This document shows, one piece after another, positions 3,349 to 44,748 of a stretch of 44,748 nucleotides of DNA (positions within the stretch are counted from its first letter, which is position 1; every line of letters begins with the position of its first letter). The position numbers were made by a program, and so were the translations under genes. Below the pieces are notes generated by a model, which saw only the letters and a list, made by a program, of their open reading frames with translations, made no database searches and was not told the DNA's origin. The stretch is from Escherichia phage Schulenburg, in sequence record MK931438.1. One strand, 5' to 3'.

Positions 3349-3371
3349 AGCCCCGAAAGGGGCTTTCTTAT
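3349..3371 (+). terminator. intrinsic terminator-like hairpin after portal gene
   Basis: agcccc-gaaa-ggggct stem-loop followed by TTTCTTAT. Confidence 0.45.
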
Positions 3372-3407
3372 AGTATGCTATTAACTTTAGCGCCACAGGG
3401 TTTATCT

Positions 3408-4451
3408 ATGAGCTTACTTACATCTCTAATCAGCCACCAGATATGGCTGCAACGCACTGCATCCGGTGAGGTGAAAGACCTCGCGCCGTTCATTAAGGAG
3501 ATGCGGGACGAAATAAAACGGCAGGTGCTGTTATTCGGTGACGACGGGCGGAGCACTGCGCGACTGAATAAACTGTTACTCGACCTTGAAGAAGCGCTAA
3601 CCGGACTTACCGGCGATTGGCAAACAAAGCTGACAGAAGACCTTATGGAACTGGCGGCGTATGAGGCCGAGTGGAATGTAAAGACACTGACCACCAACGT
3701 AGATGCGGAATTTGTTACGCCTACTGCCGAACAGGTGTGGTCCGCTGCCGAGTTTCAACCCTTATCATTAAGCGACAAGCCTGTTGATTTCACTAAGCTG
3801 ATGTCGGGATGGGGTGAAACCGAAGTAGCACGTCTCGTAACCGGCGTTAAGATGGGCTTTGTTCAGGGTAAGACAACACGGCAGATTGTTAAGAATGTTG
3901 TTGGTGCTGGTGGTTTGGCGGACATTTCAGAACGTAACGCGGCTACTGTAATCCGCACCGCGCTGTCTCATGTATCCAACGAGGCCCGTAACGAGACGTA
4001 CCGCCAGAACGACGACATTATCGAGAAGTACGAGTGGGTGTCGACGCTGGACAGCCGTACCAGTACGATTTGTAGGGCCAGAGACGGAATGACGTGGGAA
4101 ATCGGTAAGGGGCCGATGCCCCCGGCCCATTTTGGGTGCCGAAGTACCACGGCACCTGTAATCAGTTCAGAGTTCGACTTCCTCGATAAAGGTGCAAAAC
4201 GTGCGGCTAAGGGCGCGGACGGAGGTACTCAGGTAAGCGCAGACACCACTTACTACGAGTTCCTGAAACAACAACCGGCGTGGTTCGTGGACGAAGCACT
4301 CGGGCCGACCCGCGGTGCGATATTCAGGAATAGTGGGATATCGCCAGAGGAATTCCGGGTAATATCTGTCGACGCTTTTGGTAGACCTTTAACCCTGAAG
4401 GAGATGGCGGAGTTAGACAACAGGGTTGCTGAATATCTTAGGTCGGTATAA
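3408..4451 (+). CDS. head morphogenesis protein (Mu gpF / SPP1 gp7-like)
   Basis: Follows portal; C-terminal motif AHFGCRSTTAP resembles the MuF-family H-x2-CRC signature; ATG 3408 (AGGG SD) preferred over ATG 3375, which lies in the terminator T-tract. Confidence 0.7.
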   Translation: MSLLTSLISHQIWLQRTASGEVKDLAPFIKEMRDEIKRQVLLFGDDGRSTARLNKLLLDLEEALTGLTGDWQTKLTEDLMELAAYEAEWNVKTLTTNVDAEFVTPTAEQVWSAAEFQPLSLSDKPVDFTKLMSGWGETEVARLVTGVKMGFVQGKTTRQIVKNVVGAGGLADISERNAATVIRTALSHVSNEARNETYRQNDDIIEKYEWVSTLDSRTSTICRARDGMTWEIGKGPMPPAHFGCRSTTAPVISSEFDFLDKGAKRAAKGADGGTQVSADTTYYEFLKQQPAWFVDEALGPTRGAIFRNSGISPEEFRVISVDAFGRPLTLKEMAELDNRVAEYLRSV

Positions 4452-4507
4452 AGTACACCTAGTAGCTAGCTTTGGTCGGTGAACTACTAAAAATAGAGAA
4501 AGAATAT

Positions 4508-4565
4508 AACCCCATGAAGGTATGCCTATCTCCGGCATCGACCAACCTTCATGGGGTTTTCTTAT
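4508..4565 (+). terminator. long hairpin plus T-tract (terminator-like)
   Basis: 12-14 bp stem ccccatgaaggt / accttcatgggg with ~23-nt loop, followed by TTTTCTTAT; the alternative ATG 4522 lies inside this hairpin. Confidence 0.45.
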
Positions 4566-4575
4566 AGGATTTAAT

Positions 4576-5145
4576 ATGGGAATTGTTTTTGGGGTAGGTA
4601 TTAATGATGTTTCACCAATAAGTTGCGGAGGGGTGCATATAGCGTCCTACGCCGGGTGGAAGAACATGTTAAAGAGGTGCTACGACAAGAAATGGCAGCA
4701 AAGAAACAGAACCTATACAGGTTGCCGTGTGTCTGACGATTGGTTGGTGTTCAGTAATTTCAAGGTCTGGTTTGATAATTTTTATGTACCTGGGTGGCAG
4801 ATAGATAAGGATTTACTGAACCCGGGAAATAAGGTTTACGATGCTTCTAACTGTGTTTTCATCCCCAAGTCCCTTAACACTTTCCTCACGGCCCACGACG
4901 CTCTTCGAGGCAAATACCCACTAGGTGTACATTTTCATAAACAAAAGAAAAGATTCATTGCCCAAGTATCCGTGGGTGGTGTATCTGAACAAATAGGCGC
5001 TTACGAAACCGCCCAAGAGGCACACGTAGCCTGGTTTCATAGAAAAATTGAATTAGCATATGAATACAAAGGCCTTTGCGATAGCATAGACCCACGCCTT
5101 TTCGAAGGCGTCTTACGTAAGATTAACTCAATGAAAGAGGTTTAG
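4576..5145 (+). CDS. HNH/AP2-type homing endonuclease-like protein
   Basis: N-terminal W-x2-M-x2-RC motif (GWKNMLKRC), degenerate His-Me-like region (IDKDLL..NCVFIP), C-terminal AP2-like segment (YETAQEAHVAW); AGGA SD 6 nt before ATG 4576. Confidence 0.55.
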   Translation: MGIVFGVGINDVSPISCGGVHIASYAGWKNMLKRCYDKKWQQRNRTYTGCRVSDDWLVFSNFKVWFDNFYVPGWQIDKDLLNPGNKVYDASNCVFIPKSLNTFLTAHDALRGKYPLGVHFHKQKKRFIAQVSVGGVSEQIGAYETAQEAHVAWFHRKIELAYEYKGLCDSIDPRLFEGVLRKINSMKEV

Positions 5146-6157: not shown

Positions 6158-6184
6158 TTTATGCCTCCTGTTTAAGTTAACTGA

Positions 6185-6213
6185 ATAGTACCCTATTATA
6201 TTGGTGCGCGCAA
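6185..6213 (-). promoter_or_regulatory. type-B promoter/operator (TTGCGC-N17-TACTAT over palindrome AATAGGGTACTATT)
   Basis: Minus-strand TTGCGC, 17-nt spacer, TACTAT; inverted repeat AATAG-N4-CTATT overlaps the -10; about 30 nt upstream of moron start 6157. Confidence 0.45.
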
Positions 6214-6279
6214 ACTATTTATTTACGTATTCCAGTTATTCCACTCAATTGTAAACGTTGGAATAAACTATTCGAATAG

Positions 6280-6308
6280 TTGACTTTTCACTGAAAATAT
6301 GATAAGCT
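6280..6308 (+). promoter_or_regulatory. sigma70-like promoter (TTGACT-17-TAAGCT) of conserved RNA element, copy 1
   Basis: TTGACT, 17-nt spacer, TAAGCT; near-identical promoter and downstream sequence recur at about 37877. Confidence 0.5.
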
Positions 6309-6515
6309 CCACCTGAGCTTGTGAAGTATGAACAAGCGACCGCGGCGCGGGCAGGTAACGGAGCGGGACGTAAGTCCTGAGTGTAGTTACGCTGACGCGT
6401 TCGGAAGGGCCATAGTCTATTGCTTGTGTAAAAAGTAACTGGTTTACTGAGATTACGCCGTTTCTATGTTTAAATGATAAGGACTAGCGCCCCGCTTTAA
6501 GGCGGGGCTTTACTT
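6309..6515 (+). ncRNA. candidate promoter-proximal structured RNA / leader element (copy 1)
   Basis: About 40 nt (cctgagcttgtgaagtatgaacaagcgaccgcggcgcg) identical to copy 2, then about 130 nt diverged but alignable; hairpins gcttgt-N9-acaagc and ggac-GTAA-gtcc; ends with stem gccccgc/gcggggc plus TTTACTT just before the Rz SD. Confidence 0.3.
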
Positions 6516-15056: not shown

Positions 15057-15248
15057 TCACTTCTCTTTGACATTCGAGTTGCAAGCCCAGATTAAAATAA
15101 ATACCCACGGCAGCAGAACCCAGCCAAGAAACAGATTGGCCATGAATATCGCTAATTTCGCTTTATGACCCCGCATATGGGCCACTAAAAACGGGATAAA
15201 ATAAACTAAAACGATAATGATTAAGAAGAACATAGTAATACCTGTCAT
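15057..15248 (-). CDS. superinfection-immunity-like small membrane protein
   Basis: 63 aa, two predicted TM helices, motif YFIPFLVAHMRGHK...LGWVLLPWVFILIWA resembling Imm-type families; AGGAG SD. Confidence 0.5.
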   Translation of the reverse strand: MTGITMFFLIIIVLVYFIPFLVAHMRGHKAKLAIFMANLFLGWVLLPWVFILIWACNSNVKEK

Positions 15249-15289
15249 GGTGTAGCTCCTGTTTGAGTTAACATTGTTGGTGTAAGTGA

Positions 15290-15318
15290 ATAGTATCCTA
15301 TTATGTTGGGGTGCGCAA
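15290..15318 (-). promoter_or_regulatory. type-B promoter/operator (TTGCGC-N17-TACTAT over palindrome AATAGGATACTATT)
   Basis: Same architecture as sites near 6185, 38175 and 39101; about 40 nt upstream of the Imm-like gene. Confidence 0.45.
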
Positions 15319-15426
15319 GTAATGTGATAGAATAATTTTGCGCCTAGTGTCGCACACGAAAAGCGGGTGGTTCCCGTCTGGCGCATTTACCATTAACCTG
15401 TAACCTCTTAACCAAAGGATTAAAGA

Positions 15427-28048: not shown

Positions 28049-28348
28049 CTAACTATAATAGTTTGCTATTATGTCGTCAACCTCTTCTTTTGTTCCTACT
28101 ACAAAAACATTTGCGTCACGTTTACGAAGCCGTTTGTGCTCCCGTAACTGATGTTCCTCCGGTTCCGTGTTTTCATCCTTCTTCACCTCTACAAACCATA
28201 TAACCCCTCCCGGAAGGACAACCAACAGGTCAGGCGCTCCGTTTCTACCCTCATACACTATCTTACGAACGAGGCCGCCAAGGGCCTCGAATTGCTCTTT
28301 TGCGTATTTCTGAATCTTGCCTTCCGGAGTCATGAGCGCAAAACCCAT
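28049..28348 (-). CDS. VRR-NUC domain nuclease
   Basis: PD-(D/E)xK-type motif PDLLVV...WFVEVKKDE; 99 aa. Confidence 0.6.
   Translation of the reverse strand: MGFALMTPEGKIQKYAKEQFEALGGLVRKIVYEGRNGAPDLLVVLPGGVIWFVEVKKDENTEPEEHQLREHKRLRKRDANVFVVGTKEEVDDIIANYYS
28052..28080 (-). promoter_or_regulatory. type-A promoter with operator in spacer (TTGACG-17-TATAGT; ATAATAG-N4-CTATTAT)
   Basis: Minus-strand -35/-10 with 17-nt spacer containing a perfect 7-bp inverted repeat; overlaps the 3' end of the VRR-NUC gene. Confidence 0.55.
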
Positions 28349-31753: not shown

Positions 31754-31782
31754 ACTATAATAGCTAACTATTCAGGTGTCAA
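31754..31782 (-). promoter_or_regulatory. type-A promoter with operator in spacer (TTGACA-17-TATAGT; AATAG-N4-CTATT)
   Basis: Perfect -35, 17-nt spacer containing inverted repeat gAATAGTTAGCTATTat; immediately after the DUF2800-like stop. Confidence 0.55.
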
Positions 31783-34260: not shown

Positions 34261-34290
34261 TGTGTCTCTCCTCTCGTTTGGTATGGGCTA

Positions 34291-34319
34291 ACTATAATAG
34301 CGAACTATTCACTTGTCAA
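34291..34319 (-). promoter_or_regulatory. type-A promoter with operator in spacer (TTGACA-17-TATAGT; AATAG-N4-CTATT)
   Basis: Minus-strand promoter divergent from the HTH regulator gene; inverted repeat gAATAGTTCGCTATTat in spacer. Confidence 0.55.
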
Positions 34320-34322
34320 TGG

Positions 34323-34352
34323 GCTTTTCTAAAATAATTAATATGGTACTAT
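34323..34352 (+). promoter_or_regulatory. candidate promoter of HTH regulator with half-palindrome AATATGGTACTATT
   Basis: TACTAT -10-like hexamer with weak -35; operator-like motif related to the type-B sites. Confidence 0.35.
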
Positions 34353-34383
34353 TCACGCATCAACTAACTAAGGAGTAACTGAC

Positions 34384-34599
34384 ATGCAACCATCTGAACT
34401 AGGCATCCGTGTAGAACAACGCCGTAAAGAACTCGGCATCTCCCAGCGCCGTCTGGCTGTCCTGACTGGCGTTTCCCAGGGCGCGATTAACCAACTGGCA
34501 CTTGGGGTAACTCAGGACGTCCGCCCGGCGACGCTGTTTAAACTGGCGGAAGTGCTGGAGGTAGACGCCAAGTGGCTGGCGTTAGGTGAAGGGGCTTAA
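34384..34599 (+). CDS. HTH XRE-family transcriptional regulator (Cro/CI-like)
   Basis: 71 aa; HTH region ELGISQRRLAVLTGVSQGAINQLALG; AAGGAG SD; divergent from operator-containing promoters. Confidence 0.7.
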   Translation: MQPSELGIRVEQRRKELGISQRRLAVLTGVSQGAINQLALGVTQDVRPATLFKLAEVLEVDAKWLALGEGA

Positions 34600-34616
34600 T
34601 GCCCCTTTCTTTTTAT
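34589..34616 (+). terminator. intrinsic terminator after HTH regulator gene
   Basis: aaggggc-ttaat-gcccctt hairpin followed by TCTTTTTAT. Confidence 0.55.
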
Positions 34617-34630
34617 AGCAACTTATCGAG

Positions 34631-34927
34631 CTATTCCAAATTCTTAATCGTGTGTTGCACGTTCAGGTACTGAATCCACGCAAAAAGCCATACGCTTAAC
34701 GGAAAACTAACCACAGCTGCCGTTCTGAAAACAATGTGGACGGTACACGCTACAATTTCCTTTACCGTCATATCCAGAACGTGGCGCAATTCTGCAACTT
34801 CCTCTAACGCTAGCTTGCAAGCAGGCCACCATTGGTGTGCTACACAAGAAACACATGTCAGGTACGACGGGCGGTATCCAGCCCTCACTGCTTTAAACGG
34901 GTTATCTATAAAATCGTAGATATTCAT
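34631..34927 (-). CDS. hypothetical Cys-containing protein (98 aa)
   Basis: ORF downstream of primase in same operon; hydrophobic C-terminus. Confidence 0.5.
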   Translation of the reverse strand: MNIYDFIDNPFKAVRAGYRPSYLTCVSCVAHQWWPACKLALEEVAELRHVLDMTVKEIVACTVHIVFRTAAVVSFPLSVWLFAWIQYLNVQHTIKNLE

Positions 34928-37202: not shown

Positions 37203-37310
37203 TTATAAGGCTTCATGCATACGGCGCATTGCGCGGTTCATCTTTACCGGTGCGGAGAAGTCTGCGCCGTGTTTCTGGCGGCGTAGCTGTGGACCTATTA
37301 ATTTCGCCAT
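37203..37310 (-). CDS. small ORF (35 aa, speculative)
   Basis: AAGGA SD then ATG just upstream of primase; could be a leader peptide or non-coding. Confidence 0.25.
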   Translation of the reverse strand: MAKLIGPQLRRQKHGADFSAPVKMNRAMRRMHEAL

Positions 37311-37350
37311 TGTATAATCCTTGTGCTTACTTTGATGATTTGTGCTTCGG

Positions 37351-37384
37351 CCCCGACGTCCTAGCGTTGGGGTTTCTTTTATTT
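37351..37384 (+). terminator. plus-strand intrinsic terminator-like hairpin in a minus-strand operon
   Basis: ccccgacg / cgttgggg stem (with one G-U pair) followed by TTTCTTTTATTT; preceded about 35 nt upstream by TGTATAAT. Confidence 0.4.
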
Positions 37385-37591
37385 ATCGCCTGCAAACCAC
37401 GCGTGCGCAGAATCATAGAAACGACATTTACTTAATACCTCGATTGGCATCTTAATAATGCGCGTCGGTTCCGACAAATGATTAGGCTTACATATTTCTA
37501 CATAGAATCCGCTGTCAGTAATTTCTGACGCAAACTTAAACCGGTATTTAACTTTACCGTCTTCAAAGTAACAACCCATACGCCCAATCAT
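37379..37591 (-). CDS. hypothetical protein (70 aa)
   Basis: ORF coupled to upstream AlpA-like gene. Confidence 0.5.
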   Translation of the reverse strand: MIGRMGCYFEDGKVKYRFKFASEITDSGFYVEICKPNHLSEPTRIIKMPIEVLSKCRFYDSAHAWFAGDK

Positions 37592-37770
37592 TTCACGTTC
37601 TCCTTAATCCATGCTTCAACTTTATTACGGTCAAATGTACCCGGTAAACGGCGGCCCATTACTTTAATACAGCAGTCAGGGAATTTACCACTGCGCAGCC
37701 AGTTATTAATTGTCTGACGTGTCACACCGATACGTTCTGCTACTTCATTCTGGGTCATGTAATGTTGCAT
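37588..37770 (-). CDS. AlpA/Xis-like DNA-binding protein
   Basis: MTQNEVAERIGVTRQTINNWLRSGKFP HTH; ATG at 37770 with AGGAGA SD. Confidence 0.5.
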   Translation of the reverse strand: MQHYMTQNEVAERIGVTRQTINNWLRSGKFPDCCIKVMGRRLPGTFDRNKVEAWIKENVK

Positions 37771-37801: not shown

Positions 37802-37830
37802 AGTATAGGATAGCGGGAATGTAAAAGCAA
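37802..37830 (-). promoter_or_regulatory. sigma70-like promoter (TTGCTT-17-TATACT) for AlpA-like operon
   Basis: Minus-strand -35/-10 with 17-nt spacer about 30 nt upstream of ATG 37770. Confidence 0.45.
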
Positions 37831-37876
37831 CCAAAACGCCACACAAAGTTACTAAGATACAAAAGATGCTACTGGT

Positions 37877-37905
37877 GTTGACTTTTACTAAGAAATATGG
37901 TAAGC
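37877..37905 (+). promoter_or_regulatory. sigma70-like promoter (TTGACT-17-TAAGCT) of conserved RNA element, copy 2
   Basis: Same hexamers and spacing as the copy at about 6280. Confidence 0.5.
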
Positions 37906-38105
37906 TCAGCCTGAGCTTGTGAAGTATGAACAAGCGACCGCGGCGCGCGGCAGGCGAAACGAGCACGTGTAGCGTGTGGAGTGAGGCTCGCTAGCGCGTT
38001 TGGGAGGCCCAAAGTCTATTGTAATTCCCGCCTAAATATCTAAGTTACTGATTTGCCGTAGGTTATATCCGCAAGCTCACTCACTCTTGGTGCCTTCGGC
38101 ACCAC
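37906..38105 (+). ncRNA. candidate promoter-proximal structured RNA / leader element (copy 2)
   Basis: Shares the about 40-nt core and a further diverged about 130 nt with copy 1; hairpin gcttgt-N9-acaagc; ends near the ggtgcc-ttcg-ggcacc hairpin. Confidence 0.3.
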
Positions 38106-38174: not shown

Positions 38175-38203
38175 CTTGCACACCCCAACATAATAGGATA
38201 CTA
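38175..38203 (+). promoter_or_regulatory. type-B promoter/operator (TTGCAC-N17-TACTAT over palindrome AATAGGATACTATT)
   Basis: About 35 nt upstream of first early gene. Confidence 0.45.
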
Positions 38204-38238
38204 TTCACTTATCGGAACGAGACAGAGGAGTGAGGGTT

Positions 38239-39100: not shown

Positions 39101-39129
39101 TTGCACGATGGGGAAGAATAGGATACTAT
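39101..39129 (+). promoter_or_regulatory. type-B promoter/operator (TTGCAC-N17-TACTAT over palindrome AATAGGATACTATT)
   Basis: About 35 nt upstream of ATG 39161. Confidence 0.45.
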
Positions 39130-39160
39130 TCATTTACACAAACGAGAGGAGAGGCAGAAT

Positions 39161-40762: not shown

Positions 40763-41052
40763 GCCTCGCAACTGACATCCTGAAACGAAGCGGCCTTGCG
40801 CCGCTGTCGCCGAGAGCGAATACACGAATACACAAGCGCCGCCGTAACGCGCTGTACCATGAGATTCAGGCCAGACGCAAAGCGGTCCGCGCCTGCGGAT
40901 TCCAGAGCGGGAAGGCCGTTAATCTAGGCGAGTTTAAGACGAAGGAACGCGCAGCAATCGCTAATCGGATATTTAATTACTGGAAATCGCTGGGATATGA
41001 TGATATTCCGACGAAACCGCAGAGACGACAATACATCTGGAGACATAAATAA
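40759..41052 (+). CDS. hypothetical basic protein (97 aa)
   Basis: Arg/Lys-rich; ATG 40759 overlaps upstream stop. Confidence 0.45.
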   Translation: MSLATDILKRSGLAPLSPRANTRIHKRRRNALYHEIQARRKAVRACGFQSGKAVNLGEFKTKERAAIANRIFNYWKSLGYDDIPTKPQRRQYIWRHK

Positions 41053-41082
41053 ACCGTTATTAAGATAATTCCTAACCGTGCT

Positions 41083-41122
41083 ATCCTCCAGTTACTGCAT
41101 ACTTAATACGCACCTGGAGGAT
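41083..41122 (+). promoter_or_regulatory. SD-sequestering hairpin upstream of holin start
   Basis: 9-bp stem atcctccag / ctggaggat with about 22-nt loop; the 3' arm contains the GGAGGA SD for the TTG start at 41128. Confidence 0.4.
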
Positions 41123-41127
41123 TCATC

Positions 41128-41436
41128 TTGGATAAATTTACTGAAACAGTGACAGGCTGGCTTCTGGCTGCCGCACTAGCCGGTGGGGTAATCGGACTAA
41201 GGCAACATAAGTCCGCTATTTCCGGCCCTATCGACGGCTTCTGCTTTATTGCAACTGGATTCACTTGCGCCGTATTCGGTGCACCTCTCGCTGCCCAATG
41301 GTTTGGCATTACCGGTGAGCGTGAGATAGCTGGCCTTGGCTTCATTATCGCTATTCTCTGGATGCCTATTTATTCCCGTCTCTCCGGTATCGTCGCCGGA
41401 GAATACATCGCACGTCGAGGAGGTGGCAATGAATGA
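41128..41436 (+). CDS. holin (putative)
   Basis: 102 aa, predicted 2-3 TM helices, charged C-terminus; TTG start; immediately upstream of endolysin. Confidence 0.5.
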   Translation: MDKFTETVTGWLLAAALAGGVIGLRQHKSAISGPIDGFCFIATGFTCAVFGAPLAAQWFGITGEREIAGLGFIIAILWMPIYSRLSGIVAGEYIARRGGGNE

Positions 41437-41710
41437 GTTATTCTGGTTTGGCGGTATGCTCGCTATCGGAGGCACATCGCTGTTTAACGTATACCACCCC
41501 AGCGTTGACGACGGGCTATTCGGTCGGGTGCTCTATATCCTGACCGCTATCGTCTGCGCCGCCGGGTGTATCCACCTGCTACAGGGCAGCGTGTCACCAA
41601 CGTTGCCGGAAACACTAATCACCCTGGTAGCGCTGCGACAGATTCGTCAATCGTGGCTGCATTACCAGTCGAAAGGAGGACATAAGCGTGTCTCGAAACA
41701 TTTCAGATAA
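41429..41710 (+). CDS. holin-like / antiholin membrane protein (putative)
   Basis: 93 aa from ATG 41429 (AGGAGG SD), two predicted TM helices, basic C-terminus; overlaps both neighbours. Confidence 0.45.
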   Translation: MNELFWFGGMLAIGGTSLFNVYHPSVDDGLFGRVLYILTAIVCAAGCIHLLQGSVSPTLPETLITLVALRQIRQSWLHYQSKGGHKRVSKHFR

Positions 41711-42191
41711 TGGATTGCAGTTCAAGAAAGCGTGGGAGAAGTTTCGTGGAACTGCGTACAAAGCCACAAAGAACGAGAAATACTGGACTATAGGCTGGGG
41801 CCATACCGGACCAGATGTGTACGAAGGGCAGAAGATTACCGAGGGTCAGGGGTTGCTGTTACTTAACCGTGATATGCAGTGGGCGGTGAAAGCAGTAGAC
41901 GAGGTGGCGCATCCATCGCTTACCCAGGCCCAGTTTGATGCCGTTGTTGACCTGGTGTTTAACGCCGGAACTGGTGTTATCGCAGCGACTACCGGAACCG
42001 GTAAGGCGCTACGGCAGGGGGACATCGCAGCCTTACGGCACAAGATGAGCCAGTTCATTAACCAGCGCAACCCTAAGACCGGTAAACTTGAACCTGTTCT
42101 GGGCCTGCGCCGTCGTGTAGCGGGTCGCCTGGCGCTGTTCGACGGTAAACCGTGGCAGGAGGCGGAGGATATCGGGAGGGCTGTTAAGTGA
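41688..42191 (+). CDS. endolysin, GH24 phage lysozyme
   Basis: T4-lysozyme-like motifs WEKFRGTAYK and YWTIGWGHTG; GTG start with AAAGGAGGA SD. Confidence 0.85.
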   Translation: MSRNISDNGLQFKKAWEKFRGTAYKATKNEKYWTIGWGHTGPDVYEGQKITEGQGLLLLNRDMQWAVKAVDEVAHPSLTQAQFDAVVDLVFNAGTGVIAATTGTGKALRQGDIAALRHKMSQFINQRNPKTGKLEPVLGLRRRVAGRLALFDGKPWQEAEDIGRAVK

Positions 42192-42323
42192 TGGACGAAT
42201 ACGAAGGTGTTTAGTATTATGGTTAAGCCAAGTTTTTCGTATTTGCATACTAAGCCTTGGTAAACCTGAAGCAGCAGCCCAAGCGGTGGAGACTGCGTAG
42301 GGTTCAGAGGCTTATGACCGAAA

Positions 42324-42352
42324 CCCGGACCGCGAATCCGGGTTTTATTTTA
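42324..42352 (+). terminator. intrinsic terminator 1 after lysis cassette
   Basis: acccgga-ccgcgaa-tccgggt hairpin followed by TTTATTTT. Confidence 0.6.
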
Positions 42353-42356
42353 CCAA

Positions 42357-42385
42357 TTGACACCTGAGAATAATCCGACGATACT
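42357..42385 (+). promoter_or_regulatory. candidate promoter (TTGACA-17-GATACT)
   Basis: Perfect -35 with weak -10, located between the two terminators. Confidence 0.3.
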
Positions 42386-42424
42386 TAAATCACCTCCTGT
42401 TCCATCCCTCTGCTCTCCAGTTTT

Positions 42425-42457
42425 ATCCCGGCCCTGACCCAGCCGGGATTTTTTTTA
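42425..42457 (+). terminator. intrinsic terminator 2 after lysis cassette
   Basis: 8-bp stem atcccggc / gccgggat followed by 7-8 T. Confidence 0.65.
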
Positions 42458-42478
42458 TCTATTTTCTGTAATGACTAG

Positions 42479-42507
42479 TTGACTATTACCTACGACCCTA
42501 TTATATT
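42479..42507 (+). promoter_or_regulatory. sigma70-like promoter (TTGACT-17-TATATT)
   Basis: About 35 nt upstream of ATG 42541. Confidence 0.5.
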
Positions 42508-42540
42508 TACTTCATCGACAACGAGAACGGAGTAGAGAAG

Positions 42541-42741
42541 ATGAAGCGTTACCAGAAGAAAACGGTAGAGCAGTTTATGGGGTACCTTAACGAGATGGGT
42601 CTTTCTGTTTACGGGCCGAGTATGACGCCAGAAGGAGAAGAAACAGGTGCGCTAATGGATTATGACGCGGATACGATAGTGGCCCGCTATAAATATATAA
42701 CTAAAGGCACTTTATGTAAGTTTGGGGGTTTCCGTAAATGA
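42541..42741 (+). CDS. hypothetical protein (66 aa)
   Basis: GGAG SD; first gene after promoter. Confidence 0.5.
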   Translation: MKRYQKKTVEQFMGYLNEMGLSVYGPSMTPEGEETGALMDYDADTIVARYKYITKGTLCKFGGFRK

Positions 42742-42887
42742 AAATCAAAGATATCGAAGCATTCAAAGACGCACAACTGATGGCGCGTATCGCCGTTAGT
42801 AACCTGAGCAACAATATCCCAGCGGACGCGTTCTGGTTCGCTGCGATGCAGACACTGAAATCAGCTTATGCAGGAGAGAAGAAATGA
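42738..42887 (+). CDS. hypothetical protein (49 aa)
   Basis: Not in ORF track; ATGA overlap chain. Confidence 0.4.
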   Translation: MKIKDIEAFKDAQLMARIAVSNLSNNIPADAFWFAAMQTLKSAYAGEKK

Positions 42888-43042
42888 GCGAACAAGGTCT
42901 AGTAAGCCAACCGTTACGTGTAGGCCGTAAAGTCAGTCATACCCCGTTCCCGACACGCGAGGAACTGATGAAACGTAACAGTTTCCCTGGGCCGGACAAG
43001 AACAAGTATCTTAATCGCATGTGGGGAGAGCGTAAAGAATGA
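42884..43042 (+). CDS. hypothetical protein (52 aa)
   Basis: Not in ORF track; ATGA overlap chain. Confidence 0.4.
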   Translation: MSEQGLVSQPLRVGRKVSHTPFPTREELMKRNSFPGPDKNKYLNRMWGERKE

Positions 43043-43212
43043 CTAACAACGAATACGAAAAAGCATGCGTAGAATCGGCGACCGGTGAATCTGAAATAGC
43101 GTGGATTGACGCCCACATCGAGCACCACTTACGGCAGGTAGATAATCTTATGGCACGCCGCCGTGAGCTGATTAATCGCTTCAACCTGAACAAAGGTGAC
43201 ACCAATGCCTAA
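43039..43212 (+). CDS. hypothetical protein (57 aa)
   Basis: Not in ORF track; ATGA overlap chain. Confidence 0.4.
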   Translation: MTNNEYEKACVESATGESEIAWIDAHIEHHLRQVDNLMARRRELINRFNLNKGDTNA

Positions 43213-43444
43213 AATCACAATCGCATCACTCGAGCGCCGCATTCTGGTGCTTGAGTCGGAGAAACGGACGCTAGGCGGTCAACTGTCAATTAATGGTGAG
43301 TTTCAGCTGGAGGCGTTTAAGTTGTTGCTTGATAAGTTGAAAGAGGGTGAAAAATCTTGCGAGCACGATTACTGCATACGTGTTGTTGGCGAGGCACGAC
43401 TTATCGCATGCCTGAAATGTGGTAAAGCGTATGGATTCGCCTAA
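43205..43444 (+). CDS. hypothetical protein with C-terminal C-x-C pairs
   Basis: 79 aa from ATG 43205; CEHDYC...CLKCG. Confidence 0.45.
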   Translation: MPKITIASLERRILVLESEKRTLGGQLSINGEFQLEAFKLLLDKLKEGEKSCEHDYCIRVVGEARLIACLKCGKAYGFA

Positions 43445-43613
43445 ACCGGTAGTTATTGATGGCGTCCTGTGGAAACCCTACTCGGTTAACCACATCGACG
43501 CCGACGGGAAGAAGTTCAGCTTCTACATTTTTGCGATTAGCCGCGAGCACGCCGCTTGTGTGGTCGACGATATACGAGAAACGGCGTGGCTAGGCGATGA
43601 GATAGTTGGGTAG
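43431..43613 (+). CDS. hypothetical protein (60 aa)
   Basis: ATG 43431 overlapping upstream gene. Confidence 0.4.
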   Translation: MDSPKPVVIDGVLWKPYSVNHIDADGKKFSFYIFAISREHAACVVDDIRETAWLGDEIVG

Positions 43614-43759
43614 TTATGTTCAGTGACATTAACGCAGCAATCGAAGAAGCAATCTGGCGTCGTTACAACGGCGAGCAACAACGGCACTTCTGCCTGGTGC
43701 AACGGGGGTAACATGATTGCCGTAGTGCAGGACCGCGATAACAAATACCCAAATGCGAT

Positions 43760-43978
43760 GTGGACAACGAGGAATTTCTTAGGATGAAACAGTTCTTTAT
43801 CAGCTACAACTGGTCAAACGGTCGGAGTTCAGGCTTCGGAAACTGCACCGCGTCGCCGAAAAACGGGGAAAAGTTCACATTGTCAGAGCTTAGAATAATT
43901 GAAGATGAAGCGAAAGAGCATGTGCCGCACGGCGCAAAAGCCATAATCATGTGCATAACGGAGATTGCCCCAGAATGA
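43760..43978 (+). CDS. hypothetical protein (start GTG 43760 or ATG 43784)
   Basis: ORF with ambiguous start. Confidence 0.4.
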   Translation: MDNEEFLRMKQFFISYNWSNGRSSGFGNCTASPKNGEKFTLSELRIIEDEAKEHVPHGAKAIIMCITEIAPE

Positions 43979-44211
43979 TTACCAGCATTCCGAACCTGAT
44001 TAAAGAATACGGCACGATGGCGGAGACATGCCGACAAACCGGCATCAATGAAATGACAATTCGCAAGTACAGCAAAGACGTGGATTGCGAGCGACATGTA
44101 ATTTATAACAACCGTCTGATGACGCACGTTAAAACAAGCCCGGTGTTATTCACGCGCCGCGGTATCACGAAGACTGAGCAACGCATTGCACGAGAGGAGA
44201 GTGAAGAATGA
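43975..44211 (+). CDS. small HTH-like DNA-binding protein (putative)
   Basis: 78 aa; segment AETCRQTGINEMTIRKY is HTH-like; ATGA overlap. Confidence 0.4.
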   Translation: MITSIPNLIKEYGTMAETCRQTGINEMTIRKYSKDVDCERHVIYNNRLMTHVKTSPVLFTRRGITKTEQRIAREESEE

Positions 44212-44426
44212 GCCGAAATATAGAGTACAAAGGTTCACATTTTTGCGTGTGGGATAACATAAACTATGTTGCCACTGATGAAGATGGTGGCGTGTACGGT
44301 TTCGAGCATGAACCCGTTATTGAAGGACTTGAATGGGTCTGGACAAGCGATAACGGTGAGGTGCAGTGCTTGGGGTGTATTGAGAATCAGGACGTAGACT
44401 GGAAGGAGTCATTGGTGCGGATATGA
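44208..44426 (+). CDS. hypothetical protein (72 aa)
   Basis: ATGA overlap coupling. Confidence 0.45.
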   Translation: MSRNIEYKGSHFCVWDNINYVATDEDGGVYGFEHEPVIEGLEWVWTSDNGEVQCLGCIENQDVDWKESLVRI

Positions 44427-44538
44427 AACTACTAATCATCCCGAACGCCTGGGTAATCGCTGTAGCTAACGACCACTACGGCGGCGATGGTAAACGAGCA
44501 CAGCGTCACGGACTATACAACTGATTGGAGAGTAAGAG

Positions 44539-44676
44539 ATGAGTATTCTGAATAAAATAGGCAACTGGATTGTGGCTAAACCGTACCGATATTGGGTAGT
44601 GCAATGGTTGCTGAACTGCGTTACGTTCTTCGCTGCGTGTATTACAGTGGCCTTCATATTTAAGGCCATATCCTGA
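44539..44676 (+). CDS. small membrane protein (45 aa, putative)
   Basis: Not in ORF track; GGAGAG SD then ATG; hydrophobic core; followed by terminator. Confidence 0.3.
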   Translation: MSILNKIGNWIVAKPYRYWVVQWLLNCVTFFAACITVAFIFKAIS

Positions 44677-44682
44677 CCATCA

Positions 44683-44707
44683 AGCCCTCTACGGAGGGCT
44701 TTTCTGT
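44683..44707 (+). terminator. intrinsic terminator-like hairpin
   Basis: agccctc-tacg-gagggct followed by TTTCTGT. Confidence 0.45.
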
Positions 44708-44748
44708 ACATCCCGCCCAATCCCCTTATATAATCCCTTTAGACGCGT

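Follow-up and report, generated by a model that had tools for sequence, protein, structure and literature searches.

A Cro-like protein and a recurrent 14-bp promoter palindrome in Escherichia phage Schulenburg: a candidate repressor and its operators in a virulent phage

What does a Cro-type regulator beside divergent promoters do in a phage whose genus is, according to published descriptions, strictly lytic? The question is raised by Escherichia phage Schulenburg, a Kagunavirus (Guernseyvirinae), whose sequence record MK931438.1 we analyzed over 44,748 nt (hereafter the window; positions count from its first letter). An earlier note, made from the letters alone, had marked positions 34261–34620 as a candidate genetic switch, consisting of a gene for a small helix-turn-helix (HTH) protein and a divergent promoter with an inverted repeat, AATAG-N4-CTATT. 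We found 11 clear copies of this palindrome in the window, and their placement and conservation support the view that it behaves like an operator, separable from the sigma-70 hexamers. The explanation that we favor, at slightly better than even chances, is that the protein would be the lone 434-Cro-like repressor of a virulent Kagunavirus and would act as a dimer on 14-bp operators of graded strength.

Results

A Cro-Type Protein beside Two Candidate Operators

The open reading frame (ORF) at 34384–34599 (forward strand) encodes a protein of 71 amino acids and corresponds to CPT_Snoke_050, "transcriptional regulator Cro," of Escherichia phage Snoke (MK931441), with which a 2-kb stretch around the locus is 100% identical. 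Many GenBank records label the gene Cro, repressor, or DicA. The only Pfam domain of the protein is HTH_3 (PF01381; residues 11–65, E = 2.3e-12, 47.2 bits against a cutoff of 23 bits); there is no C-terminal oligomerization or S24 peptidase domain, which makes it Cro-type and not CI-type. Its closest solved relatives by sequence in the PDB are 434 Cro (E = 7.9e-6) and the DNA-binding domain of the 434 repressor (E = 1.5e-5), aligned over residues 6–68. The AlphaFold2 model (predicted local distance difference test score 85) has the five helices of the HTH_3 fold, at residues 5–17, 21–28, 32–39, 48–57, and 62–66, helices 2 and 3 forming the helix-turn-helix. Foldseek matched the model with probability 1.0 and template modeling (TM) scores of 0.73–0.85 to 434 Cro, P22 c2, SinR, and C proteins; against 434 Cro itself (2cro and 3cro, free and on OR1) the TM score was 0.77–0.85 and the identity 36–40%. 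The gene has a Shine–Dalgarno sequence AAGGAG (34371–34376, +; annotated in Snoke as the ribosome binding site [RBS]) and is monocistronic, ending in an intrinsic terminator of hairpin and T-run (34588–34617, +; found by our scan and annotated in Snoke) whose loop holds the stop codon.

To the left of the gene lies a sigma-70 promoter, TTGACA-17-TATAGT (34319..34291, −), with its −35 at 34319..34314 and its −10 at 34296..34291. It agrees with the consensus at 11 of 12 positions and had the top score in the promoter scan. Its spacer is filled by a strong candidate operator, O_L (AATAGCGAACTATT, 34296–34309; 23.2 bits on the weight matrix introduced below), which has one base in common with the −10. 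A weak candidate operator with one mismatch, O_R (AATATGGTACTATT, 34340–34353; 17.0 bits), sits 31 nt upstream of the HTH start codon, where it overlaps the −10 of the gene's own promoter. As read from the sequence, that promoter would have an extended −10, TGgTACTAT (34344–34352, +), and a poor −35; the scan listed an alternative, TTCACT-16-TAAAAT (34308–34335, +). The mismatch of O_R (AATAT) generates the TG of the extended −10. The earlier note had claimed the Cro/CI-type protein, the leftward promoter with the repeat in its spacer, and a related degenerate palindrome upstream of the HTH gene, and all three held up.

The two sites are 44 bp apart, centre to centre, and every other promoter has one site only. 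Among 33 distinct Kagunavirus upstream sequences, O_R was kept in all 33, one differing at a single centre position, and O_L had invariant arms around a variable centre. The leftward promoter drives the gp049–gp045 operon, which encodes small proteins, a DUF551 protein, and a PD-(D/E)XK nuclease; searches of Pfam and PHROGs gave no HTH or peptidase match for these genes, including the divergent one with a product of 49 amino acids.

Two observations concern the same intergenic DNA. A 33-nt CRISPR (clustered regularly interspaced short palindromic repeats) spacer of E. coli 2017.09.02CC (NZ_AP025214.2, 4038667–4038699) is 100% identical to window positions 34315–34347, and its target is thus the DNA between O_L and O_R; this was the sole match to the locus in 5,426 complete E. 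coli genomes. At the other end of the gene, the Cro terminator looks unidirectional and the leftward primase-helicase operon ends at 34631 (window 34600–34640), so leftward transcripts could run antisense through the regulator gene into the operators and cause transcriptional interference.

Eleven Palindromes across the Genome

Exact copies of the palindrome number 7 in the window, against 0.04 expected from base composition, and copies with at most one mismatch number 11; in 100 dinucleotide-preserving shuffles such copies averaged 1.08 and never exceeded 5. A weight matrix trained solely on other Kagunavirus genomes, with the window excluded, gave a bimodal distribution in which the 11 sites scored 14.4–24.6 bits and the next best sequence 8.8 bits. 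The seven perfect sites reached 21.9–24.6 bits and the four with one mismatch 14.4–17.0 bits; the weak four are those at the regulator's own promoter, at two structural-gene promoters, and at 3369. All 11 are intergenic and located 20–60 nt upstream of an RBS and start codon, two of them being overlapped, but only by an over-extended or antisense ORF.

The sites fall into three registers relative to the −35 and −10 hexamers. In class A (sites 28057, 31759, and 34296, all leftward) the palindrome lies in the spacer, starting 4 nt after the −35, and its last T is common with TATAGT; the downstream operons encode helicase, single-stranded DNA-binding protein (SSB) and DNA polymerase, and nuclease. 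Besides the promoter of O_L, this class comprises TTGACA-17-TATAGT at 31782..31754 (−; site 31759–31772, 24.0 bits), ahead of the operon for SSB and DNA polymerase, and TTGACG-17-TATAGT at 28080..28052 (−; site 28057–28070, 24.6 bits), upstream of gp037 and the helicase operon; these are the two other leftward promoters at which the earlier note had seen the same geometry. In class B the promoter is TTGCRC-17-TACTAT and the palindrome's right arm doubles as the −10. Two such sites serve rightward promoters of small-gene operons: AATAGGATACTATT (38192–38205, 22.5 bits), at TTGCAC-17-TACTAT of the gp057 operon, and 39117–39130 (21.9 bits), over the −10 of the gp062 promoter. Two more lie over the −10 of leftward promoters, at 15289–15302 (22.5 bits; TTGCGC-17-TACTAT, imm and phosphoesterase operon) and at 6184–6197 (21.9 bits; sliding clamp), and the regulator's own site at 34340 also belongs here. 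In class C the palindrome contains the −35, TTGACT, of promoters of packaging and structural operons, and both sites have one mismatch. The first, ACTAGTTGACTATT (42474–42487, 15.8 bits), belongs to the rightward TTGACT-17-TATATT, with small genes and then terminase downstream as judged by synteny with Snoke and with Jerseyvirus SE2. The second, AATAGTTGACTTTT (6275–6288, 14.4 bits), belongs to the rightward TTGACT-17-TAAGCT, with spanin, scaffold, and capsid genes downstream. The last weak site, TATAGTATGCTATT (3369–3382, 15.8 bits), lies between the portal and capsid-morphogenesis genes, directly behind a terminator, and no convincing promoter could be assigned to it.

Most of the recognizable promoters carry a site. 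Two are free of sites, namely a putative leftward TTGCTT-17-TATACT (about 37846..37818), ahead of an HTH_17 gene and the primase-helicase gene, and a rightward TTGACT-17-TAAGCT (37869–37897). Given the sites at nonreplication promoters and the site-free primase-helicase promoter, the motif extends beyond the replication module and yet leaves part of it uncovered. The claim that one repressor controls the replication module is supported as far as the operator-like behavior of the palindrome goes and is otherwise too narrow and partly wrong: sites stand also at the sliding clamp, imm, two rightward small-gene operons, the regulator, and two structural-gene promoters, and the primase-helicase promoter has none. 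A genome-wide motif search, which had been suggested as a check, confirmed the palindrome sites, of which only 4 of the 11 had been given.

Two of these regions show further features. The strong class B promoter and site at 15289–15302 fall inside the annotated or longest imm ORF (window 15245–15386; in Snoke CPT_Snoke_025, superinfection immunity protein), and a CAGGAG RBS with an ATG follows about 40 nt downstream of the site. Because a promoter and candidate operator lie within the ORF and an RBS and ATG beyond them, the annotated imm start is probably set too far upstream. In the divergent region between clamp and structural genes, positions 6263–6278 form a perfect 16-bp palindrome, AACTATTCGAATAGTT, with outward-facing half-sites, which abuts the weak site at 6275–6288 and has AATAG in common with it.

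An Element Apart from the Polymerase Contacts

Relative to the hexamers the palindrome takes three positions (spacer, −10, and −35), and its orientation is free as well. The extended asymmetric site, TGAATAG...CTATTAT, points opposite ways in Kagunavirus classes A and B, and Jerseyvirus SE2 has an identical 14-mer, AATAGAGTACGATT, at two promoters, facing either way. At the orthologous imm promoter the palindrome begins 11 nt after the −35 in the window versus 8 nt in SE2, a shift of 3 bp.

Spacers of sigma-70 promoters normally vary freely. We assessed conservation across about 35 related genomes, taking close homologues from phage and IMG/VR collections and anchoring the alignments on the downstream genes, so that rows were not chosen for the motif. 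With 27–33 distinct sequences per promoter, 4 of 30 arm columns were variable versus 10 of 12 centre columns (Fisher P value = 3.5e-5), and two of the four variable arm columns stem from six rows with a replaced promoter. Conserved arms around a drifting centre are the signature of a site bound by a dimer. At the structural-gene promoters even the mismatches are conserved, as ACTAG in Kagunavirus and as the mirror-image CTAGT in Jerseyvirus. The varied register, the use of both orientations, the shift at imm, and the different conservation of arms and centre together indicate that the palindrome is a functional element apart from the polymerase contacts.

The same motif has been published under another name. 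In the related Kagunavirus fBC-Eco01, PHIRE returned 7 "phage promoters" with the consensus tgAATAGTa-ccTATTat-T, which were ascribed to a phage RNA polymerase (PMC9825357), and seven PHIRE promoters were reported for Golestan, another Kagunavirus (PMC7203180); the fBC-Eco01 set agrees with ours in motif and has a similar count, and Golestan was compared by count only. These papers treat the sites as promoters, and the motif could accordingly be conceived as a phage-specific promoter element, read by a phage polymerase or a redirected host polymerase with no repressor involved. Its publication as a promoter set and the location of every site at the start of a transcription unit speak for this. 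On the other hand, the Snoke annotation lacks an RNA polymerase gene, no ORF in the divergent tail of the window resembles one, and each strong site is set within a complete sigma-70 promoter with a 17-nt spacer. A motif whose position is not fixed, in three registers and both orientations, is unlike a polymerase recognition element, as is a dyad with a free centre. We consider a promoter element very unlikely, and the absence of an annotated polymerase in Snoke together with the register and orientation data suggest that the phage-polymerase reading of the fBC-Eco01 motif is probably wrong.

Candidate Binders of the Palindrome

If the palindrome is an operator, its binder should be sought among the proteins that accompany it. 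Our co-occurrence sample consisted of 74 IMG/VR loci and four full or partial genomes, Serratia phage Tsm2 being represented by the 27 kb examined. Every examined lineage that carries the motif, as such or in variant form, also has a Cro homologue. The homologue is at least 94% identical to the window protein in Kagunavirus (helix 3 SQGAINQ), 48% in Jerseyvirus (SQSLITH), 42% in Tsm2 (SQGMLNH), and 41% in the PSDA-2 lineage (TQSAISH). More distant homologues (L055–L080) come from unrelated high-GC phages without comparable promoter architecture and were set aside as a test of covariation.

The operators differ along the same lines. Of 110 Kagunavirus half-sites, 42 have G and 56 have T next to the arm, usually one of each per site; all 40 Jerseyvirus half-sites have T there, giving TAATAG-N4-CTATTA. 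In three genomes of Jerseyvirus type the SSB promoter resembles that of Kagunavirus except for a T at the position where every Kagunavirus has G. In the PSDA-2 lineage the promoter motif is TAATA-N6-TAATA, which is never seen in inverted form and is present 3 times per genome where about 0.05 would be expected. The direct motif lies at 37, 3089, and 13251 of L006 (PSDA-2), and likewise in L051 and L053. Three Cro clades (Kagunavirus, Jerseyvirus, and PSDA-2) thus correspond to three operator variants, which is consistent with coevolution of repressor and site. Two of the candidate operators, moreover, flank the Cro-like gene itself. From the co-occurrence, the geometry, and the exclusion of rivals, we infer that the Cro-like protein is the palindrome binder.

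The foremost rival is that the operator is real and bound by another factor, be it the HTH_17 protein, a NinH-like protein, an unrecognized phage protein, or a host protein, the Cro-like protein acting elsewhere. The HTH_17 protein (37588–37770, −) is 82% identical between Kagunavirus and Jerseyvirus, the two genera sharing the motif core, and the PSDA-2 lineage, with its altered motif, lacks it. The Cro recognition helices of the two genera with the common core are not alike. The HTH_17 gene also stands behind a site-free promoter, and an "HTH domain" gene was among the four earliest in a Kagunavirus RNA-seq study. If that is the HTH_17 gene, it would fit the HTH_17/primase promoter being immediate-early. 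We nevertheless rejected HTH_17 as the binder: it is missing from L028, L014, and Tsm2, which keep 6 exact sites, 3 sites, and 2 exact plus 2 near-exact sites in 27 kb, respectively. Its helix also varies inside Kagunavirus while the sites stay constant, the protein of L009 and L030 being merely 70% identical with sites unchanged. In addition, HTH_17/excisionase-type proteins are usually monomers on direct repeats, which counts against such a binder here.

Two further candidates were set aside. The presence or absence of the NinH-like protein (43951–44211, +) does not track the motif, the protein being present in PSDA-2 with its altered motif, whereas the 27 kb examined of Tsm2 did not yield it. 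A host transcription factor is disfavored by the Jerseyvirus and PSDA-2 lineages, which both infect Salmonella and have different motif variants, and we know of no E. coli factor with such a dyad; OxyR-like ATAG-N7-CTAT and TrpR-like CTAG spacings would not fit. Taking both sides together, we regard a binder other than the Cro-like protein as unlikely.

A Proposed Repressor without a Partner

With the Cro-like protein as binder, the circuit could work as follows. Host RNA polymerase would initiate at near-consensus sigma-70 promoters while the Cro-like protein, made from its own monocistronic unit, builds up. Its dimer would occupy (T/G)AATAG-N4-CTATT(A/C) operators that overlap the spacer and −10, the −10, or the −35, and a bound operator in any of these three registers would block RNA polymerase. 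The seven promoters with perfect sites (replication, recombination, small-gene, imm, and sliding clamp) would be shut first. At higher levels the regulator's own one-mismatch site would be throttled, giving negative autoregulation, and the structural-gene promoters, with one-mismatch sites, would be least affected. Binding would thus mean repression, and the graded strength of the sites would set the temporal order. The best reading of the arrangement appears to be one-component repression with autoregulation, with no antagonistic second regulator and one operator per promoter.

Expression data from another Kagunavirus bear on this to a limited extent. A coarse RNA-seq time course placed a "specific DNA binding" gene beside an "AAA domain" gene in the middle class. 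The former is probably the Cro-like gene, and its class speaks neither for nor against the model.

The combination of divergent promoters and a Cro/CI-type HTH gene may also bring to mind a true bistable lysis–lysogeny or pseudolysogeny switch in a cryptically temperate phage, and the excisionase-like HTH_17 gene, an anti-repressor-like gene reported in a Jerseyvirus (PMC9409062), and the GenBank records that say "repressor" or "DicA" point the same way. Several findings speak against a switch of the lambdoid type. The protein has 71 amino acids and lacks the C-terminal oligomerization/S24 peptidase domain of a CI, the divergent operon holds no second regulator that could act as a CI antagonist, and the control region lacks three adjacent operators. 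Neither an integrase or other maintenance function nor a CI is annotated in Snoke or visible in the window ORFs, those at 40.9–44.7 kb included; for the integrase this agrees with the earlier note. Prophage copies are likewise missing: the locus occurs in 0 of 5,426 complete E. coli genomes, the lone match being the CRISPR spacer, and the genus is described as strictly lytic. As built, the circuit in the window cannot be bistable. We judge a cryptic lysogeny switch to be extremely improbable; the earlier view that this is no lysogeny switch stands, and the term genetic switch does not, as there is neither an antagonistic second regulator nor a tripartite OR.

An Apparently Structured Leader Downstream of Two Promoters

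Two copies of a leader of about 130–145 nt, at 6296–6440 and 37884–38030, follow the TTGACT-17-TAAGCT extended −10 promoters at 6280–6308 and 37869–37897. Identity between the copies is 79%, and 18 other Kagunavirus loci have the leader at 74–100% conservation. RNAalifold predicted 24 pairs, of which 4 show compensatory changes; one pair is seen as UA, CG, and AU, and in the inner hairpin the sequence has wholly changed while the pairing is kept. The single-sequence fold was not significant (z = −1.4), and no Rfam family matched, either for the whole window at the gathering threshold or for the second copy at E up to 1. Terminator-like hairpins stand 60–70 nt past each leader, at 6489–6508 and 38088–38104. 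The leader is probably noncoding, since the short Snoke ORFs over it (007 and 056) do not keep a common reading frame. Its layout recalls the lambda PR'-6S-tR' or HK022 put RNAs, and it may serve in antitermination, in a put-like or Q-type manner, or be a small RNA.

Genomic Context

The 2-kb stretch around the locus matches 444 phage records, nearly all of them from Kagunavirus and Jerseyvirus. Over its whole length the window is collinear with Snoke at 90–99% identity, except for a few swapped segments. Two segments gave no alignment to Snoke. Positions 4131–5131 are the intein-containing portion of the capsid morphogenesis gene, and positions 41050–44748 are the lysis-distal small-gene region that includes the NinH-like HTH ORF (43951–44211). 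The part from the primase-helicase gene to the rightward control region is a mosaic module (12559–13144 of L028 versus window 37203–37770). In some Kagunaviruses the HTH_17 gene and its neighbors are swapped for Cys-rich proteins of 149 and 47 amino acids, and the N terminus of the primase is divergent.

Discussion

The analysis answers the opening question with a Cro-like protein that would act as a repressor on its own, and several observations weigh against this answer. The class B promoters have long flanking similarity and are possible duplicates, which makes them not independent evidence. The structural-gene promoters are near-consensus sigma-70 promoters, and two of them are followed by the conserved structured leader and a terminator; late timing may therefore rest on antitermination and not on the repressor, and if the leader switches on the late genes, it may limit the reach of the Cro-like protein. 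Regarding the identity of the binder, Kagunavirus and Jerseyvirus have the AATAG/CTATT core in common despite recognition helices that are unlike at 4 of the 6 variable positions, which makes a simple covariation of helix and operator weak, and the correspondence of operator variants with Cro clades has to be read knowing that all lineage-specific traits covary too. The PSDA-2 motif is a direct repeat, awkward for a symmetric HTH dimer. Finally, our literature search returned no binding or expression data on the Cro-like protein or its homologues.

Taken as a whole, the observations can be joined into a wider reading that we put forward tentatively, as possible rather than probable. A virulent siphovirus would run most of its transcription by one partnerless Cro-type repressor, with graded operators on nearly all sigma-70 promoters ordering the shut-off, the two-copy structured leader RNA and terminators providing late antitermination, and operators that coevolved in three Guernseyvirinae genera, including a switch from inverted to direct half-sites.

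Kagunaviruses and Jerseyviruses are among the commonest therapeutic and biocontrol phage isolates for E. coli and Salmonella and serve as a small chassis for synthetic phages, and our literature search found nothing mechanistic on their transcription control; a paper on a collection of K1 phages, for one, is silent on promoters. The annotation "Cro/repressor" regularly prompts safety questions about lysogeny. If the protein is a lone early-shut-off repressor with an 11-site regulon, that worry would be settled, the motif's published interpretation as a set of phage RNA-polymerase promoters would be corrected, and a compact orthogonal repressor–operator pair with natural affinity variants would be gained. 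Conceptually, it would be an incremental extension of the 434/lambda Cro paradigm.

Among known systems, two resemble the locus in part. The lambdoid CI/Cro switch likewise has a divergent promoter pair flanking operators beside a Cro/CI-type HTH gene, but here there are no CI, integrase, cooperative triple operators, or prophage copies. The restriction-modification (R-M) controller proteins C.AhdI and C.BclI, small single-domain HTH_3 proteins, were among the top structural matches. C proteins autoregulate via dyad "C-boxes" overlapping their own promoter and use sites of graded affinity as a timing device. They differ in serving one R-M operon, which they both activate and repress, whereas the placements of the 11 targets here predict repression only.

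The closest likeness is to 434 Cro, which has the same length of 71 amino acids, the same five-helix HTH_3 fold, and the conserved Gln at the start of helix 3. The 434 operators are 14 bp long with conserved outer bases (ACAA...TTGT) and a variable, noncontacted centre; the window sites have the same length in a 5-4-5 layout. The proposed role would be alike as well, namely repression of early promoters including its own. The differences are the identity of 36–40%, the half-site (ACAA in 434 versus AATAG here), the lack of a CI partner and of a tripartite OR/OL, the virulent phage, the predicted nature of the binding, and the use of one operator per promoter, with about 11 single sites genome-wide in three registers. 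The system is therefore best filed as one of the familiar 434-Cro kind, with gene and motif partly known already, in what would be an unusual deployment: a repressor with no partner, in a virulent phage, acting on about 11 single operators.

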